A stretch of 64,000 nucleotides of DNA from contig CAZIMC010000002.1 in NCBI GenBank assembly GCA_964540475.1, forward strand, positions 111,551 to 175,550. The letters are read 5' to 3'. The stretch is from an uncultured Gammaproteobacteria bacterium. GTDB taxonomy: Bacteria > Patescibacteriota > Microgenomatia > UBA8517. This document shows, one piece after another, positions 7,824 through 35,421 of this stretch; positions within the stretch are counted from its first letter, which is position 1, and every line of letters begins with the position of its first letter. The position numbers were made by a program, and so were the translations under genes. The notes beneath the pieces were generated by a model. That model saw only the letters and a program-made list of their open reading frames with translations, was not told the origin of the DNA and did no database searches.

Positions 7824-8066
7824 ATGAAAAGAGTGATGGAACCGAAATTATTATTCCGATATTTGGATAATGAAGATAGCGAAACTCGCCTTAAAACCGC
7901 ATATTGGAGGATATTTCGACAGGCACGAAAGAACTTAATTCGAAGAAAGAAAATGTTGGGGATAGATTATCTCCATACATATGAACTAATACCCGTGAAG
8001 AAAATAAAAATAAGAATAATTAACCCTGTTTTATACGACAGGGACAAAATAAGAATTTATGGATAA
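7824..8066 (+). CDS. small basic protein, possible recombination directionality factor
   Basis: 80 aa, Arg/Lys-rich. Lies immediately upstream of, and overlaps by 8 bp, the serine recombinase gene. Confidence 0.35.
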   Translation: MKRVMEPKLLFRYLDNEDSETRLKTAYWRIFRQARKNLIRRKKMLGIDYLHTYELIPVKKIKIRIINPVLYDRDKIRIYG

Positions 8067-9669
8067 TCATCTATCAAATGTATCGGGTTACTATGCCCGT
8101 GTTTCAACAGGCAGGCAGGAAAACGAAGAAACAATAGAGTCCCAGAAAGCAGAAATTAAGGAAAGAATAAAAAAGGATAATAATTATATTTCCCCTGAAC
8201 ATGAATTCTTTGATGACGGATGGACTGGAACAATACTAGCCAGACCTGGACTCGATGCCTTAAGAGATACAGTAAAGCGAAAAGAGATTAAGTATTTATA
8301 TGTTTACGATTTAGGTCGATTGAGCCGAGATTTTACTTATCAGTTATTGCTTCTAAAAGAGTTTGAGGACGAAGGGGTAAAGGTAATATCGCTACACGAT
8401 ATTAACCCTGAGAATGGTGAGCAAAACTTTATGCGTAATATCATGGGTGCCTTCCACGATTATGAACGTATCAAAATTGCGGAACGGTTCAGGCGAGGTA
8501 AATTGCATAAGGCAAAGAATGGCCTTCTAATCAATGGTCAAGGACTATACGGTTATACCTACATAAAAAAGACAGATAATAAACCACCCAAAATTGTGCT
8601 AAATGCAAAAGAAGCAGAGGTGGTGAAACTAATTTTCAATTGGTTAGGTAATGAAGGATATTCCATTAAGGAAATTGTCAGAAAGCTTTACGAGAAGGGA
8701 ATACAGCCGAGAAAGAACAAAAGCGAGTTTTGGAGTACAGGACCAATTCTAAGGCTTCTTCGGTGTGACTCTTATATTACAGGGGTGATTTACTATAACA
8801 AATCAGAAGCGATTGAAACTAAAGTACCTCGAAAAGAAGAAAAGTACAGGAAGATAAAAAAGGGGAGCAGACGGGTAAGGCCAAGGGCAGAATGGTATCC
8901 CTACAAAGTACCGAAAATCCTAGATGATTGGGATTTATTCAACCGAGTCCAAAAGATATTGGACAACAATCGAAGGCATGGACCGAGAAGAAAATCTTAT
9001 GACTATTTGTTATCAGGTCTAATATTTTGTGAGTGTGGTCAAAGGCGGGCAGGAAATGGGAAGAATAACGGGCATTACTATTATCGGTGTACTGACAGAA
9101 TTCTCAGGCATCCCTTACCTCCTGAATGTAAATCACCGGCCTTAAATGCCAGAGTACTCGATAAAGTGTTTTGTGATGAGCTTACGAAATACCTCACAAA
9201 TTCCAAGAACATCAACGAGATTGCAGAAGACTACCTCAAAGCTCAAGCGGTTGATGAAAGCGAGGAAAGAGAAAAGCAAGCACACCTTCATAACATTTCA
9301 AAGCTTGAGGAAGAAGAAAGACGCTGTATCAGGCTTCATGTTGAGGGAGAAATTGAGTTCGAGGAATTTAAGGAACTAAAAAGTGATATAAACAAACGAA
9401 GAAAGGATGAAGAAAACGAGCTAAAACGACTAAATGAGCTAACAAAGGATATAAATATCGATAACGTTGAGCTACAAGAATTCTGCCAAGAGGTGAAAGA
9501 AGTGTTACAGAGCCTCAATTACTCAAGTAAGTCTTTGTTAATTAGAGACGTAATTGATAAAATAGTCATGAAAGGAACAACAAATGAGGTTGAAGTTATG
9601 GGGCATATACCCATAAATCACCTAAATATCGGGTATGAACTTATCAGTAGGAATAGTGGGCCTACCTAA
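8059..9669 (+). CDS. large serine recombinase (integrase)
   Basis: N-terminal resolvase catalytic domain (YARVSTGRQENEE with the catalytic Ser region). Central recombinase domain. Zn-ribbon (CECG...C..C). C-terminal coiled coil. 536 aa. Confidence 0.9.
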   Translation: MDNHLSNVSGYYARVSTGRQENEETIESQKAEIKERIKKDNNYISPEHEFFDDGWTGTILARPGLDALRDTVKRKEIKYLYVYDLGRLSRDFTYQLLLLKEFEDEGVKVISLHDINPENGEQNFMRNIMGAFHDYERIKIAERFRRGKLHKAKNGLLINGQGLYGYTYIKKTDNKPPKIVLNAKEAEVVKLIFNWLGNEGYSIKEIVRKLYEKGIQPRKNKSEFWSTGPILRLLRCDSYITGVIYYNKSEAIETKVPRKEEKYRKIKKGSRRVRPRAEWYPYKVPKILDDWDLFNRVQKILDNNRRHGPRRKSYDYLLSGLIFCECGQRRAGNGKNNGHYYYRCTDRILRHPLPPECKSPALNARVLDKVFCDELTKYLTNSKNINEIAEDYLKAQAVDESEEREKQAHLHNISKLEEEERRCIRLHVEGEIEFEEFKELKSDINKRRKDEENELKRLNELTKDINIDNVELQEFCQEVKEVLQSLNYSSKSLLIRDVIDKIVMKGTTNEVEVMGHIPINHLNIGYELISRNSGPT

Positions 9670-10738
9670 CGTTGGAAAGTCCACACTTTTTAATGCGCTT
9701 TTGAAAAAGCAGCAAGCATATGTTGCTAATTTTCCTTTTGCAACGATCGAACCGAATATTGGAGTCGTGCCAGTACCAGACAATCGTCTATCGCAATTGT
9801 CGCAAGCGGTCAAAGGTTCAGAAGGGCTTGACGTTTTGCCGCCCGGGGTTCCTGCGACTGTTGAGTTCGTAGACATTGCAGGGTTAATCGCAGGAGCACA
9901 TAAAGGCGAAGGTTTGGGGAATAAATTTCTAAGCCATATTAGGGAAGTTGATGCGATTTGTCATGTCTTACGGGTTTTTAGTGATAAGGATATTGTGCGT
10001 GACGGGCAAATAACACCCGACTTGGATTTTGAAACTATTGAAACTGAGTTGGCGCTTGCTGATCTGCAGACATTAGAAAACCAGAAAGACCCGGGAGGCT
10101 CGCAGGACAAAGAATTACGAAAAAGATGGGAATTAGTACTAAAATTAAAGGAATCGATCTCAAAAGGTAAGCCGGCAAGAAGTATTGTTTTATCGGATGA
10201 AGAGACAAAAATCCTAAAAGAACTCTCATTACTTACAGCAAAACCAATTTTGATTGTACTTAATGTCGATGAGGACGATTTAAAACGAAGAGGCGAGATC
10301 GAAGAACATTTTGCAATGCGGCTTAAAGTCAATAAAGAGCAGGTTGTTACAATTTGTGCAAAGACCGAAAGCCAATTAGCTGATCTTACTGACGAGGAGC
10401 AGGCAGTTTATTTAAGTGAATTAGGGGTATCTGACTCAGGATTATCACGACTGATTCAAAAAGCATTTACAACACTTGGACTTATTACTTTTCTGACAGC
10501 TGGTGAAAAGGAAGTTCGGGCCTGGACCATTAAAGCGGGAATTACGGCACAAGAGGCCTCGGGGGTTATCCACACGGATTTTATGAAAAAGTTTATAAAG
10601 GCAGACGTTTGCAATTTCAACGATTTTATATCTGCCCCGGGATGGAAGATTGCCCGAGAGAAAGGGCTGGTCCGTTCAGAAGGCCGGGACTATATTGTAA
10701 AAGAGGCGGATGTAATTGAGTTTAAAATTGGAAGCTGA
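9635..10738 (+). CDS. ychF: ribosome-binding ATPase YchF (Obg family GTPase)
   Basis: G1 motif GIVGLPNVGKSTLFNAL. C-terminal TGS domain. 367 aa. Confidence 0.9.
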   Translation: MNLSVGIVGLPNVGKSTLFNALLKKQQAYVANFPFATIEPNIGVVPVPDNRLSQLSQAVKGSEGLDVLPPGVPATVEFVDIAGLIAGAHKGEGLGNKFLSHIREVDAICHVLRVFSDKDIVRDGQITPDLDFETIETELALADLQTLENQKDPGGSQDKELRKRWELVLKLKESISKGKPARSIVLSDEETKILKELSLLTAKPILIVLNVDEDDLKRRGEIEEHFAMRLKVNKEQVVTICAKTESQLADLTDEEQAVYLSELGVSDSGLSRLIQKAFTTLGLITFLTAGEKEVRAWTIKAGITAQEASGVIHTDFMKKFIKADVCNFNDFISAPGWKIAREKGLVRSEGRDYIVKEADVIEFKIGS

Positions 10739-23567: not shown

Positions 23568-23619
23568 AAATAATTGGGGCAAGTAGTGCTTGCACTGAGC
23601 AAGCAAGGGCGTCGAAGTG

Positions 23620-31723: not shown

Positions 31724-32494
31724 ATGTCTAAAAGACGCCGCTTTTTAATCACCTCACTTGTCCTTTCGCTTGGATTTATAGGTATTCAATTTCTCCAAGA
31801 TCAGTTTAGGTTTCTGGCAATAGGGGGCTTAGGGCTTGCTACATTTGCTTTATTTTACTGGTCACTAAAAGAGGGAATAAGCTCAAACATGACTATTTTA
31901 ACTCTAGTACTTCCAACGCTCTTTACGCTCGGAGTTGGCGTTTTTTGGTTTTTGTTACCAGTAAATGTATTAGCCAGAATTCCTGTAGTAATTATGTATG
32001 GTGTTGGAATATATGTACTTTGTCTGACCATGAACATTTACACAGTTTCAGCTTCAACGCGAACGATTGCACTGTTACGTGCGGCAAGGGGAGTCGGGTT
32101 TGTGTTAACTCTTCTAACCTCTTTCCTGATATTTGATGCAATATTTTCCCTGAGAGTCTCGTTTTTAGTTACTGCACCACTTGTCTTCCTTTTAACCCTG
32201 CCTCTATATCTGCAGGGATTTTGGGCAATTGAGCTGGAAGAGAATTTTAGTAAGGATTTACTTGTTTTATCACTAGTCAGCTCACTAGTGACTTCTCAAA
32301 TTACCGTAGCGCTTCACTTTTGGCCAGTGACCGTTGTTGTTGGATCACTTTTTTTGACAGGCACCTTTTATATGCTTTTAGGTTTAGGCCAAAGCAAGCT
32401 TGAAGGTAGGCTTTTTGCCCAAACGGTGAGGGAGTACCTCTTGGTTGGGCTTTTTGTGTTTATCGGAATGTATTTTGCTACACGTTGGGGATAG
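31724..32494 (+). CDS. polytopic membrane protein (hypothetical)
   Basis: 256 aa, about 7 TM helices. Confidence 0.5.
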   Translation: MSKRRRFLITSLVLSLGFIGIQFLQDQFRFLAIGGLGLATFALFYWSLKEGISSNMTILTLVLPTLFTLGVGVFWFLLPVNVLARIPVVIMYGVGIYVLCLTMNIYTVSASTRTIALLRAARGVGFVLTLLTSFLIFDAIFSLRVSFLVTAPLVFLLTLPLYLQGFWAIELEENFSKDLLVLSLVSSLVTSQITVALHFWPVTVVVGSLFLTGTFYMLLGLGQSKLEGRLFAQTVREYLLVGLFVFIGMYFATRWG

Positions 32495-32903
32495 CTTCAA
32501 ATTTTCAATTTGCAATTTTTAATTTTCATAAGCAATAACCTGAGAATAGAGGAGGGGGTAGGATATCCTATATTTATGTTATATACATTTGTGAAAGAGA
32601 TAAGGTTTTCATGAATATTATGGGATTTTTCACAAATTAACAAATTGCGACACTAGTAAACAAAACCCGAACCTAAAGCTTGAGAGAATAGTATAGTATG
32701 ATATAGTTAGTAGGCACAAAACCTTCATCATACCCTCTAAGATGTGGATAAATTACTAATTAGTCTTACATAGGAGTTACCGGTATCCTCGGAGTAGAAG
32801 ACCCTTTAGAATGCCTTTAGTAAGCTTGTTGGCGTGCTCTTCGAGCTTGCTAGCTTGTTCTGGTATTCAGTTATGAATACCAAAGGAGAGGTTAAAATAT
32901 AAT

Positions 32904-32999
32904 ATGTCGTACAATATAACTTTTACGACGTATTACATACCACCAGGAGTGGGGTGCTTTTTATCTTATTTTTTAGTTTACTTTGGCAAAAACCTGTAA
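32904..32999 (+). CDS. candidate small hydrophobic peptide (31 aa) in AT-rich gap
   Basis: AAAGGAGAGG SD about 12 nt upstream of the ATG. Peptide MSYNITFTTYYIPPGVGCFLSYFLVYFGKNL. Not in the ORF track (<60 aa). Speculative. Confidence 0.2.
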   Translation: MSYNITFTTYYIPPGVGCFLSYFLVYFGKNL

Positions 33000-33657
33000 C
33001 TTATATAATATTTATCTGTTTGCTCTGCTTTTAGGAATTGCTATAAATATTTCCACTCCGAACAAACACCGAATATTATTTAACGATTTTTTAAGCTCTC
33101 CCCTAGTCTGGTTTAAAATTTGTCGGTATTACTTTATCCCGATATTTCGGTTAATATAAAAGATGAGTGTATACCCATCTTTGGCCTCAGACAGGCCTTA
33201 GAATCGATTTGGTGAGGTCCCGTTTGTGTCTAATCTAGATAAACTAAAAGTGATAAAATTACTTGTATGTCTACAGAGCATGAGCTAGATAAGAGTTCAA
33301 TTAATACATCCAGAGAGAAAATCAAAAGACTTTCGGAATCACTTATAAATTTTGGTTGTGCAACGGGACGGCTTAGTATTGTTACAATTGGCTTAATGAT
33401 TACGTTGACTGCAAACTCCAGTGAATACAAAGACTTAATTGCTGAAAGTATAAAGAAATGGAAGAAGAAAAATATCTAAACGAGTAGCGTCGCACATTGT
33501 ATTACTCCACAATCAAATCCGTAAACTATACATAATTTTAAGCAAAACTTTATTTTCCAAAGTGCACTTACGACTTATAGATAAAGATAAAACCCTTACC
33601 CTTCCCCACTCCGATTTGTATAGTTGTTAAAATTGCAAATTGCTTTAGAATGCGATT

Positions 33658-34389
33658 ATGACGCACGAGTTGCCAAAGTCTTATGAAGTGCTTATAACTC
33701 TCGAGGATGTCGAGACTATTGGGAGAATGGGATTAATCAGCTTGGATCTAGATGGTGTGGTTGTGGACCTGGCCCACTTGCCACTTGCTAGGTTTAATTC
33801 TGAGCATAAGACAAGTTATACCTTACAGGATTTAAACCACCCGTATAGCATGGACGATTGGTATATAGCAAAGTATAACTGCACGCGTGATGAGGCACGC
33901 ATTTATACAACAGCACTTTGGAATTCGGCGGAATTCCTAGAGAATGCTCCGGTTGTCAAGGGTGCTGATGAAATTCTCAGATTGCTTGATAGGAGTAATA
34001 TTTCGTACCGCTTTGTTACGTCGAGGCCGTTTTCTGTTTTTTCAAGTACACAAACATGGTTTCAAAGAACTATTGGAGGCGATAAGATGGAGAGGGTTCT
34101 AATTCAAACTTCGGATAAATATAACATGAGGCACAAAGTTGAAACAATCAGAAATTGGGGTATAAAGGTGCATTTCGAAGACATGCCTGCACATGCTATG
34201 GAAATTGTAGAAAACACTGAAGCTATCGTTGTCATGGTAAATCACCCCTGGAACCGCTCGTTACCAGCCCACCCAAAGATTGCAAGGCCAGCACTTGACC
34301 CTGTTTATGATGCGAATCTGCTTCATTCTTTTTCTTCTCTTGTGCGTTACCTTAAGTCCCCCAACGGGCAGTCGCACAATAATTATTGA
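33658..34389 (+). CDS. HAD-superfamily 5'(3')-deoxyribonucleotidase-like protein
   Basis: HAD motif I LISLDLDGVVVDL. NT5C-like length (243 aa). Confidence 0.55.
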   Translation: MTHELPKSYEVLITLEDVETIGRMGLISLDLDGVVVDLAHLPLARFNSEHKTSYTLQDLNHPYSMDDWYIAKYNCTRDEARIYTTALWNSAEFLENAPVVKGADEILRLLDRSNISYRFVTSRPFSVFSSTQTWFQRTIGGDKMERVLIQTSDKYNMRHKVETIRNWGIKVHFEDMPAHAMEIVENTEAIVVMVNHPWNRSLPAHPKIARPALDPVYDANLLHSFSSLVRYLKSPNGQSHNNY

Positions 34390-34464
34390 CACATCCCCCG
34401 CTTTTGTGTAAATTGAAATTAATTATCGGATAACCGTTTTTTAAGTTTCTAATCAATCAACTTA

Positions 34465-35421
34465 ATGGCTGCCCAAACCGAATCTATCAACGGCGAAATT
34501 GGAAAAAGGATTGGAGAATTCCTTGAATACCTTCAGGTTGAGCGCGGCGCTTCTCCCCTGACCTTGCGTAATTACAGACATTATTTAACGCGTTTTGTAA
34601 ATTGGTTGCAAAAAGAAGGCATCCGCAGTAGTCTCGAAGATATAAACCAGGAAATAATAAGATCCTTCAGGGTATACCTATCAAATCTCCCAGATGGTAA
34701 GGGAGGAAAACTAGGAAGAAGAACACAAAGTTATCACGCAATTGCCCTTAGAAGTTTTCTTAAATGGTTAATTAAGAACGACTACAAGGTTATGGCTCCA
34801 GATAAAATTGATCTGCCGAAAATTAACGAAAGGCAAGTGAAATTTTTAAACGGTGAGCAAGTAGATAGACTTCTAAATGCCCCCACTCTTTCGACCATCC
34901 AGGGAAAGCGGGATAAGGCAATCTTAGAAGTTTTCTTCTCAACGGGATTGCGGGTTAGTGAGTTAACCAGGCTGGATCGTGACAAAGTCGATCTGGGAAG
35001 GCGCGAATTCGGGATTATTGGTAAAGGCGGACATGCGCGAGTAGTTTTTCTTTCGGCGCGTGCCTCCGATTGGCTAAAAGTTTATTTAGATGCAAGAAAA
35101 GATAAATATAAGCCAATTTTTATTAGACATAAGGGTAAAATCGGCCCAACCACCCCAGATGAAAAAATGCGTCTCACCCCCCGTTCTGTTCAGCGTATGA
35201 TAAAAAATTATGTCAGGAAAGTTAAGCTTCCTGTTGAGGCAACCCCGCATGTTTTGCGGCATTCATTTGCAACAGATTTACTTATGGCTGGGGCTGATAT
35301 AAGAAGTGTGCAGGAGATGCTCGGGCACAAAAACATATCAACTACTCAAATTTACACACATGTAACCAACAAACAACTTAAAGACGTTCATTCGGCTTTC
35401 CACGGCAAGGGCGGAAGTTGA
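34465..35421 (+). CDS. xerC: tyrosine site-specific recombinase XerC/XerD family
   Basis: N-terminal SAM-like domain (LEYLQVERGASPLTLRNYRHYLTRFVNWL). Catalytic RHxxR...Y box: HVLRHSFATDLLMAGADIRSVQEMLGHKNISTTQIYTHV. Confidence 0.85.
   Translation: MAAQTESINGEIGKRIGEFLEYLQVERGASPLTLRNYRHYLTRFVNWLQKEGIRSSLEDINQEIIRSFRVYLSNLPDGKGGKLGRRTQSYHAIALRSFLKWLIKNDYKVMAPDKIDLPKINERQVKFLNGEQVDRLLNAPTLSTIQGKRDKAILEVFFSTGLRVSELTRLDRDKVDLGRREFGIIGKGGHARVVFLSARASDWLKVYLDARKDKYKPIFIRHKGKIGPTTPDEKMRLTPRSVQRMIKNYVRKVKLPVEATPHVLRHSFATDLLMAGADIRSVQEMLGHKNISTTQIYTHVTNKQLKDVHSAFHGKGGS

Follow-up and report, generated by a model that had tools for sequence, protein, structure and literature searches.

Results

This report concerns a non-coding gap (positions 32495 to 33657, not assigned to a strand) in a 64-kb stretch of DNA from contig CAZIMC010000002.1 (the window, by which we mean the whole stretch of DNA that was analyzed), and in particular a 28-bp imperfect palindrome within the gap, here called site X, which is a candidate dif site. 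The gap lies between a gene for a DUF5656 membrane protein (31724-32494), its left neighbor, and a segment of variable cargo that leads to xer, a gene for a Xer-family tyrosine recombinase. With a length of 1163 bp it exceeds every other intergenic gap of the window, the second largest being 486 bp, and the window as a whole has a coding fraction of 0.91. Its GC content is 0.335, compared with 0.412 for the window, and the longest open reading frames (ORFs) inside it encode 70 aa (33267-33479, + strand), 66 aa (- strand), and 58 aa (+ strand). These values agree with an earlier note on this DNA, which had described a 1.16-kb AT-rich gap with no ORF longer than 70 aa.

We searched for relatives of the locus using the DUF5656 protein and obtained six Candidatus Woesebacteria loci, with identities of 54-70%. 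All six share the same gene order, namely a LytR_C gene, a TPR gene on the - strand, yebC, the DUF5656 gene, a non-coding stretch, a variable gene that may or may not be present, xer, and, after further genes, gyrA on the - strand. The relatives that we inspected have a comparable non-coding stretch after the DUF5656 gene, with ~770-800 bp to the next ORF. When the gaps of the relatives are aligned, conserved islands are revealed, including a DnaA box and a 24-nt block of the form GTCG[C/T]ACAAT...ACTTTT[G/A]CGAC. Since the gaps align in islands across relatives, the gap, as judged by this alignment, is orthologous and conserved rather than the remnant of a decayed insertion.

The 24-nt block (32906-32929) forms the core of site X (32904-32931, + strand), which reads ATGTCGTACAA-TATAAC-TTTTACGACGT and is an 11-6-11 imperfect palindrome and a candidate dif (Xer core site). 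The general form of X is ATGTCGYACAA-TNNNAC-TTTTRCGACGT, in which the 11-bp arms agree at 9 of 11 positions and enclose a 6-bp center; with two flanking bases per side, the family form is ATGTCGCACAA-TAATAC-TTTTGCGACGT. X matches the pattern GTCGYACAATNNNACTTTTRCGAC in 7 of 7 loci found via the membrane protein. Scanning metagenomes with the same pattern placed X on at least 120 contigs, with one copy on each and all contig names distinct. This was an exact-pattern scan, in which the arms are fixed by the pattern and only the middle 3 nt of the central 6 are free to vary. Among the matches listed, six X-bearing contigs are 0.8-1.2 Mb long and carry one X each, and X is likewise present in a single copy within the window. 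The most frequent centers are TAATAC (64 loci), TATAAC (23), and TGATAC (21), and others occur as well. The palindrome extends weakly outwards by 1-5 nt, and the flanks farther out from X revealed no conservation across loci. The neighboring DUF5656 protein is only 28-70% identical across contigs, falling as low as 28-40%. We considered a small ORF that begins at the ATG of X (MSYNITF...) and rejected it because this ATG varies among loci.

The position of X relative to its neighbors is also conserved. Where the flanking genes are present on a contig, X follows the DUF5656 gene and, in every such case, precedes an xer that runs on the same strand. The distance from the end of the DUF5656 gene to X is 239-1436 bp (median 496), and that from X to xer is 28-5456 bp. 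In a lineage of higher GC content (L021, 13576-13660; L073, 7695-7780), the left neighbor of X is an hflX-like GTPase gene whose 3' end directly adjoins it, xer starts ~28-58 nt past X, and the upstream motif cluster described below is absent. The pairing of X with xer persists in this lineage, and thus X and xer behave as a constant pair.

We used an unbiased k-mer search to look for words that change strand around X, and this search selected AGGGGAG. Over all loci, AGGGGAG occurs 155 times on the + strand and 3 times on the - strand to the left of X, and 6 and 155 times, respectively, to the right of it. The bias is present in every distance bin to ±10 kb, and the interval in which it flips is -30 to +109 relative to X. 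Likewise, the E. coli FtsK-orienting polar sequence (KOPS) word GGGNAGGG has + to - ratios of 91:5 left of X and 15:78 right of X, and the top-ranking 8-mers, AGGGGAGA and TAGGGGAG, point towards X 137 times and away from it once in the former case, and 135:1 in the latter. The polarity of AGGGGAG is unaffected by gene strand: to the right of X the + to - ratio is 3:45 within + strand genes, 2:44 within - strand genes, and 1:67 in intergenic DNA.

The same polarity is seen in the window alone. When GGGNAGGG and AGGGGAG are pooled, the + to - ratio is 9:0 left of X and 0:8 right of X (Fisher p = 4e-5), and the switch point lies between 32087 and 33098. The cumulative skew of GGGGA in the window reaches its maximum between 32487 and 33099 (50:9 vs 14:35, p = 4e-9), and X is the sole strongly conserved element within that interval. 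The first polar word to the right of X (33096-33106, - strand) is CTCTCCCCTAG, that is, AGGGGAG on the - strand, which points back at X. A CTCCCCT copy is found at a clade-typical distance from X (~+109 to +243) in many loci.

The layout known for dif is 11-bp arms around a 6-bp center, 28 bp in all (PMC5357621), and in known bacterial systems dif lies exactly at the inversion of KOPS (PMC2958812). Archaeal dif sites have been predicted as sequences that are unique, conserved, non-coding, and located at the inversion of short polarized words (PMC2958812). X has paired inverted arms of ~11 bp and a 6-bp center, is unique and non-coding among the matches listed, is conserved, and lies at the inversion of the polar words. 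The earlier note had listed a terminus-associated region among its readings and had pointed to a dif-like segment at 32574-32584. In substance, a dif reading is borne out by the conserved palindrome and the converging words, but the coordinates must be moved: the segment TTATGTTATAT is present on the + strand as described, it falls in unconserved columns of the alignment, and the dif candidate is X at 32904-32931 instead.

The presumed partner of X is the product of xer (34465-35421, + strand), a protein of 318 aa with Pfam Phage_integrase and SAM-like N domains. It is the gene that the earlier note had called xerC/D, and it is a member of the Xer family, but its scores against both of those NCBIfam models are below cut-off (XerC, 253 bits vs 335; XerD, 245 vs 330), as is its score for XerS (133 vs 267). 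It narrowly passes the archaeal XerA model (NCBIfam XerA_Arch, 221.1 vs a cut-off of 220), and its nearest solved structure is XerD (1a0p, E 6e-41). The catalytic set R..K..HxxR..H..Y is intact in the translation (GLRVSEL, GKGGHAR, HVLRHSFAT, LGHKNI, IYTHV). The protein is thus roughly equidistant from XerC and XerD, a score profile that would fit a lone recombinase acting on near-identical arms.

Upstream of xer we found a second, partial version of the site, which we call X' (34371-34392, + strand). It consists of the left-arm copy only (GTCGCACAAT, 34371-34380) together with TTGACA, and it coincides in part with the end of the gene that precedes xer (final codons and stop codon). The TTGACA (34387-34392) begins 6 nt past the left-arm copy and is the likely -35 box of the xer promoter. 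In 49 of 79 loci, the strand that carries xer has a left-arm copy GTCG[C/T]ACAAT ahead of the gene, and in 34 of those 49 TTGAC begins 2-6 nt past the 9-nt arm GTCGYACAA. No comparable extra copies of the right arm were found in the loci searched. In L111 the left-arm copy is inside the promoter spacer, and in L098 a complete X directly follows a TTGACA-17-TATCAT promoter. These arrangements suggest that the arm-binding protein, most simply Xer, probably also regulates xer.

Classical dif is located at an inversion of base skew, and we therefore calculated the GC skew at third codon positions (GC3 skew) for genes identified by homology, expressed on the + strand. To the left of X the values are +0.216 for DUF5656 (+), +0.126 for yebC (+), and +0.268 for TPR (-); to the right they are +0.087 for xer (+), +0.135 for gyrA (-), and +0.174 for SIMPL (-). 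The third-position AT (AT3) skew is negative left and right of X alike. Whichever strand the genes lie on, the + strand is rich in G3 and T3 to either side of X. For all called ORFs, the replication-type skew term is +0.164 left of X and +0.133 right of it. No skew inversion was observed in any of the 9 loci with long flanks, the flanks being limited to 10-30 kb around X. In the window, the skew falls from +0.148 to +0.039 across X without inverting. The plain cumulative GC skew of the window has its maximum at ~35-37 kb, but it tracks gene strand and is not decisive alone. To the right of X, the strand that carries the G-rich polar words is the G3-poor one, which points to selection on word orientation. 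In L073 it is the other strand that is rich in G3.

In most of the DUF5656-linked loci, four motifs, designated P, FF, R, and D, lie to the left of X, nearly always on one strand. D is a consensus DnaA box (32743-32751, - strand, TTATCCACA; TGTGGATAA on the + strand) and is conserved as (A/T)TGTGGATAA(C/G)T. It is the perfect box that the earlier note had reported near 32748, and it is kept at the equivalent relative position in about three quarters of the related loci. The DnaA-box word TGTGGATA is found upstream of X in 74 of 112 loci and is enriched at -500 to -100 from X. R (32690-32707, + strand) is the tandem AGTATAGT-ATGATATAGT, with a family consensus of TGATATAGTTTGATATAGT; it is an AT-rich, extended -10-like direct repeat with 10-bp phasing. 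A promoter scan matched TTGAGA-16-TATAGT with TG at this position, which makes R a good candidate for an extended -10 promoter. The R word GATATAGT occurs upstream of X in 82 of 112 loci, and the AT-rich tandem TGATATAGT lies 10-60 bp from the DnaA box on a side that varies by lineage. The R tandem TGATATAGTTTGATATAGT is also a perfect mirror repeat, reading the same backwards on one strand. FF (32606-32634, + strand) comprises two direct repeats, TTTTCATG at 32606 and TTTTCACA at 32627. The repeats have the form TTTTCAC[G/A] with a family spacing of mostly 22-23 bp, and the FF word TTTTCACG is present in 67 of 112 loci. The P-like element (32561-32575, no strand assigned) is GGATATCCTATATTT, and in related loci it is the palindrome CCTATAAT/ATTATAGG.

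The order of these motifs is FF-R-D in the clade to which the window belongs, R-D-FF in another, and FF-D-R in a third, and such permutation favors DNA-binding sites over one RNA. Few copies of the motifs occur elsewhere in the window, and we rejected common promoter elements on that ground. The upstream cluster appears to be a lineage-specific group of predicted protein-binding-type motifs. Two further words were noticed in individual clades: TGAGGCTAA forms a tandem pair ~11 bp apart at ~+200 from X in one clade (L020, L029, L067, L069, L094, L101, etc.), and the reversed word TTAGCCTCA occurs just past R in another (L084, L089, L117, L124).

The locus does not resemble a classical oriC. Allowing at most one mismatch, 60 of 79 loci have one DnaA box, 12 have none, and 6 have two. 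The window contains 3 perfect boxes and 25 with at most one mismatch, compared with 18.6 expected, and 25 was reached in 8 of 100 shuffles, so the number of boxes in the window is not above chance. The degenerate box that it had placed near 33144 is present as TTATCCCGA at 33134-33142, but in unconserved columns. We found no dnaA or dnaN in the window or within ±30 kb, and a search of 919 kb of related loci for a DnaA homologue (the query being E. coli DnaA) was likewise negative. With one DnaA box and no cluster, no dnaA or dnaN within ±30 kb, and words that converge and do not diverge, as they would from an origin, we rejected the replication-origin reading in its classical form.

The DNA between X and the xer promoter, comprising two conserved blocks, orf70, and a HAD-like gene, is cargo that differs among lineages and amounts to ~0 to 5.5 kb between X and X'. 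The first block is CCGAACAAACACCGAA (33058-33073, + strand), which 32 of 127 loci carry with no more than 3 mismatches, in 29 cases at +100 to +200 from X. The second is GACAGGCCTTAGAATCGATTTGGTGAGGTC (33190-33219, + strand), which contains TAGAAT (-10-like) and GGTGAGG (Shine-Dalgarno-like) ahead of the variable cargo and is present in 26 loci at +200 to +400 from X. In L001 it immediately precedes a 238-aa ORF. From its sequence, this block may be a -10 box followed by a ribosome-binding site. The putative orphan orf70 (33267-33479, + strand) encodes 70 aa with one hydrophobic stretch, as the earlier note had described. No homologue was found in 126 related loci, it has no family match, and among 5.8 billion proteins its only match was itself. 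The HAD/NT5C-like gene (33658-34389, + strand) is the cargo gene that X' overlaps. Its product has a weak NT5C match (21.3 bits, below cut-off), and homologues with 22-31% identity are present in only ~11 of 126 loci.

A TAGAAT at 33646-33651 precedes the ATG of the HAD-like gene at 33658. It is part of the word C(C/T)TTAGAAT, which occurs three times on the + strand (32804-32813, 33195-33204, and 33642-33651). The third copy ends 6 nt ahead of the ATG, and this proximity suggests that the mRNA of the HAD-like gene is possibly leaderless. In L039, L102, and L124, two or more left-arm copies flank genes, and Xer-mediated capture of cargo is therefore possible.

Rfam yielded no match in the gap at the gathering threshold, and extending E to 10 produced only chance snoRNA matches. 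ARAGORN found no transfer-messenger RNA (tmRNA) and no tRNA in the gap, its sole match in the window being a tRNA-Leu at 23619. When RNAalifold was applied to a MAFFT alignment of the region from R to X+100 in 24 loci, it returned -2.5 kcal and only 4 bp, all of them in X. The sole variable stem pair of X is C/G in 60 loci, C/A in 32, T/G in 17, and T/A in 14 (n=123); these are the counts that independent variation predicts, and 26% would mismatch in an RNA stem. Given the lack of an Rfam match, a consensus structure, and covariation, together with the permuted motifs and the recurrence of the left arm alone, we rejected a structured non-coding RNA (ncRNA), one of the readings that the earlier note had listed. 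A passable promoter (at least 8 of 12) is present at X in only 19% of loci, and a general promoter overlapping X was rejected on that ground.

The edges of the gap carry a 14-nt perfect inverted repeat, CAATTTGCAATTTT, at 32506-32519 (+) and 33629-33642, which is specific to the window. The copies lie 12 nt past the stop codon of the membrane protein gene and 16 nt before the ATG of the HAD-like gene. The pair is absent from the relatives, has no target duplication, and has no further perfect copy in the window. On the basis of these negative results and the orthologous gap in all relatives, we rejected a miniature inverted-repeat transposable element or decayed insertion for the whole gap, which the earlier note had entertained; only the part with orf70 and the HAD-like gene is variable.

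The genes of the window neighborhood include dnaB, gyrA, gyrB, holB, ychF, and a ParB-like gene. A gene for a large serine recombinase (8059-9669), with Resolvase, Recombinase, and zinc-ribbon domains, adjoins ychF, and one of the two other perfect DnaA boxes is located near it, at 10566. This region may be an integrated element. Between 45901 and 59811 there are PilB-, PilT-, and PilC-like genes, followed by ~17 similar-sized ORFs on the same strand (158-337 aa).

Discussion

We consider it likely that the gap is a conserved terminus-type control region of a Woesebacteria chromosome, within the Microgenomates of the Candidate Phyla Radiation (CPR), and that X is the dif site of a single-Xer system. 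In the mechanism that we infer, the GTCGYACAA arms of each X would be bound by two Xer monomers, the two X sites of a chromosome dimer would synapse, and the dimer would be resolved by strand exchange over the 6-bp center. A translocase of the FtsK/SpoIIIE type would be steered to X by the (T)AGGGGAG(A) words that point at it from both sides, and the left-arm copy beside the -35 box of xer (34371-34392) would probably give Xer control of its own gene.

Several observations weigh against this interpretation. At X there is no inversion of the third-position GC or AT skew, so one property expected of dif, location at an inversion of GC skew, is not seen. AGGGGAG occurs at +40 to +44, on the 'wrong' side of X, in 5 loci. 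The scan that extended the family of sites used an exact pattern, such that the invariance of the arms and the single-copy status of X are of lower confidence outside the 7 loci found via the membrane protein. Finally, the promoter half-site X' is equally compatible with a pure operator role.

The constant sign of the skew can be accommodated by another arrangement, which we regard as doubtful. Three complete Microgenomates genomes have a monotonic cumulative GC skew, for which Kadnikov et al. (2020; PMC7143001) proposed adjacent origin and terminus or unidirectional theta replication. By analogy, a plasmid-like unidirectional origin could lie left of X, making the same strand the leading one on both sides. 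With origin and dif/terminus within ~1 kb and a single fork travelling round the whole chromosome, skew would never invert and the AGGGGAG words would still converge on dif, a combination to which we attach equally little confidence. The unchanged sign of the GC3 and AT3 skews across X and its match to the monotonic skew of those three genomes speak for a co-located origin, as do cluster motifs that are conserved yet permuted, as is expected of DNA-binding sites, the iteron-like spacing of the FF repeats (22-23 bp apart), and the proximity of dnaB, gyrA, gyrB, holB, ychF, and the ParB-like gene. However, most loci have one DnaA box (60 of 79, with 12 having none), neither 919 kb of related loci nor the ±30 kb covered in the window yielded a dnaA homologue, no initiator gene was identified, and the cluster is absent from the hflX-X-xer lineage. 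Furthermore, coding to the right of X is mostly on the - strand and would thus be head-on to a rightward fork, and with flanks of at most 10-30 kb a skew inversion could lie farther off. As a dif-like site beside a DnaA-box and repeat cluster, the locus is nonetheless a concrete candidate for an adjacent origin-terminus junction.

The remaining explanations would give X a different role. That it is mainly an integration or cassette site, like those of integrative mobile elements exploiting Xer (IMEX) or integrons, with the genes between X and xer captured by Xer, seems to us quite unlikely. Cargo of ~0-5.5 kb that depends on lineage and the left-arm copies flanking genes in L039, L102, and L124 would be accounted for in this way, but X' has no right arm and is mostly at a fixed promoter position, the order of full site, cargo, and half site would be unlike the expected products of integration, and no element-like genes were seen; such a role would in any case supplement and not replace that of dif. 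X and X' could instead be mere operators for xer and its neighbors, possibly with Xer as the repressor, dimer resolution occurring elsewhere or being absent. The left-arm copy directly beside the -35 box of xer in the majority of loci, the placement of the arm in the promoter spacer of L111 and of X after the promoter of L098, and the -10-like TATNAT that is often ahead of X are all compatible with operators. We judge this very unlikely, as it leaves unexplained both the genome-scale convergence of words on X regardless of gene strand and the combination of a variable center with invariant arms, and a promoter of acceptable score is present at X in just 19% of loci. It is scarcely credible that the gap encodes a structured ncRNA, whether novel or of the 6S, tmRNA, or RNase P-like kind, in which X would form a hairpin. 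The extended -10 promoter at R is directed towards X, X can be drawn as a 6-bp stem, and a purine-rich block followed by a T-rich run lies past X; against these stand the lack of an Rfam, tRNA, or tmRNA match, the 4 bp found by RNAalifold in 24 loci, a stem pair that varies independently (C/A in 32 of 123), the permuted order of the blocks, and the left arm standing alone at the xer promoter.

If X is the dif site of this lineage, then a major uncultured lineage has a candidate dif/Xer module that comprises a dimer-resolution site, the word (T)AGGGGAG(A) that would guide the translocase to it, and a half-site through which xer is likely to be autoregulated. We found no paper in the literature linking CPR/Patescibacteria and dif. 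Selected word polarity and mutational skew, which are confounded in ordinary genomes, are separable here: words on the G3-poor strand to the right of X are hard to explain without direct selection for orientation. X would also provide a physical landmark for monotonic-skew Microgenomates genomes that are without an identifiable origin or terminus.

Certain features of the upstream cluster recall iteron-type plasmid origins such as that of pSC101, which have a DnaA box, AT-rich direct repeats, repeats phased at ~22 bp, and an inverted-repeat operator. The cluster differs from these in having only two iteron-like repeats and no identified Rep gene, and we regard this as a resemblance only. The monotonic-skew Microgenomates genomes belong to the same superphylum and likewise lack a skew inversion; in the report describing them neither a dif or Xer site nor an origin is named ('Xer' appears 0 times; PMC7143001), whereas we present a concrete candidate locus, derived from the window and related contigs.

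Among known Xer systems, XerS/difSL of streptococci and lactococci is similar in that a single Xer gene is linked to its own dif as a module (PMC5357621), and the present site, too, is one on which polar words converge. However, difSL is 31 bp long with an 11-bp center and unequal arms and is directly beside xerS (PMC5357621), whereas X is 28 bp (11-6-11), is unrelated in sequence, and is separated from xer by 28-5456 bp that include variable cargo. The Xer protein of the window also scores only 133 bits against the XerS model, for which the cut-off is 267. The archaeal XerA/dif system resembles the one proposed here in its lone recombinase and in a dif of 11-6-11 layout whose arms differ at few positions, but the archaeal dif does not adjoin xerA (PMC2958812), whereas X is linked to xer. 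In addition, the window is from a bacterium, and its polar word resembles the bacterial KOPS and SpoIIIE recognition sequence (SRS) words. Both arms of X share CGCA.AA with the XerC arm of E. coli dif (GGTGCGCATAA); we treat this likeness as a lead only. The classical XerCD/dif and FtsK-KOPS systems of E. coli and B. subtilis resemble the present locus in having a 28-bp site whose 11-bp arms enclose a 6-bp center (PMC5357621) and G-rich 7-8-mers that invert at the site, the KOPS word GGGNAGGG itself being polar here. In contrast to those systems, we observed a single xer gene, in linkage with the site, a half-site is present in the xer promoter, the arms are near-identical, implying a homodimer, and the GC3 and AT3 skews do not invert at the site. 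Compared with these systems, the locus is best described as a candidate single-Xer/dif module with an anomalous property, namely a word polarity that is decoupled from base skew.

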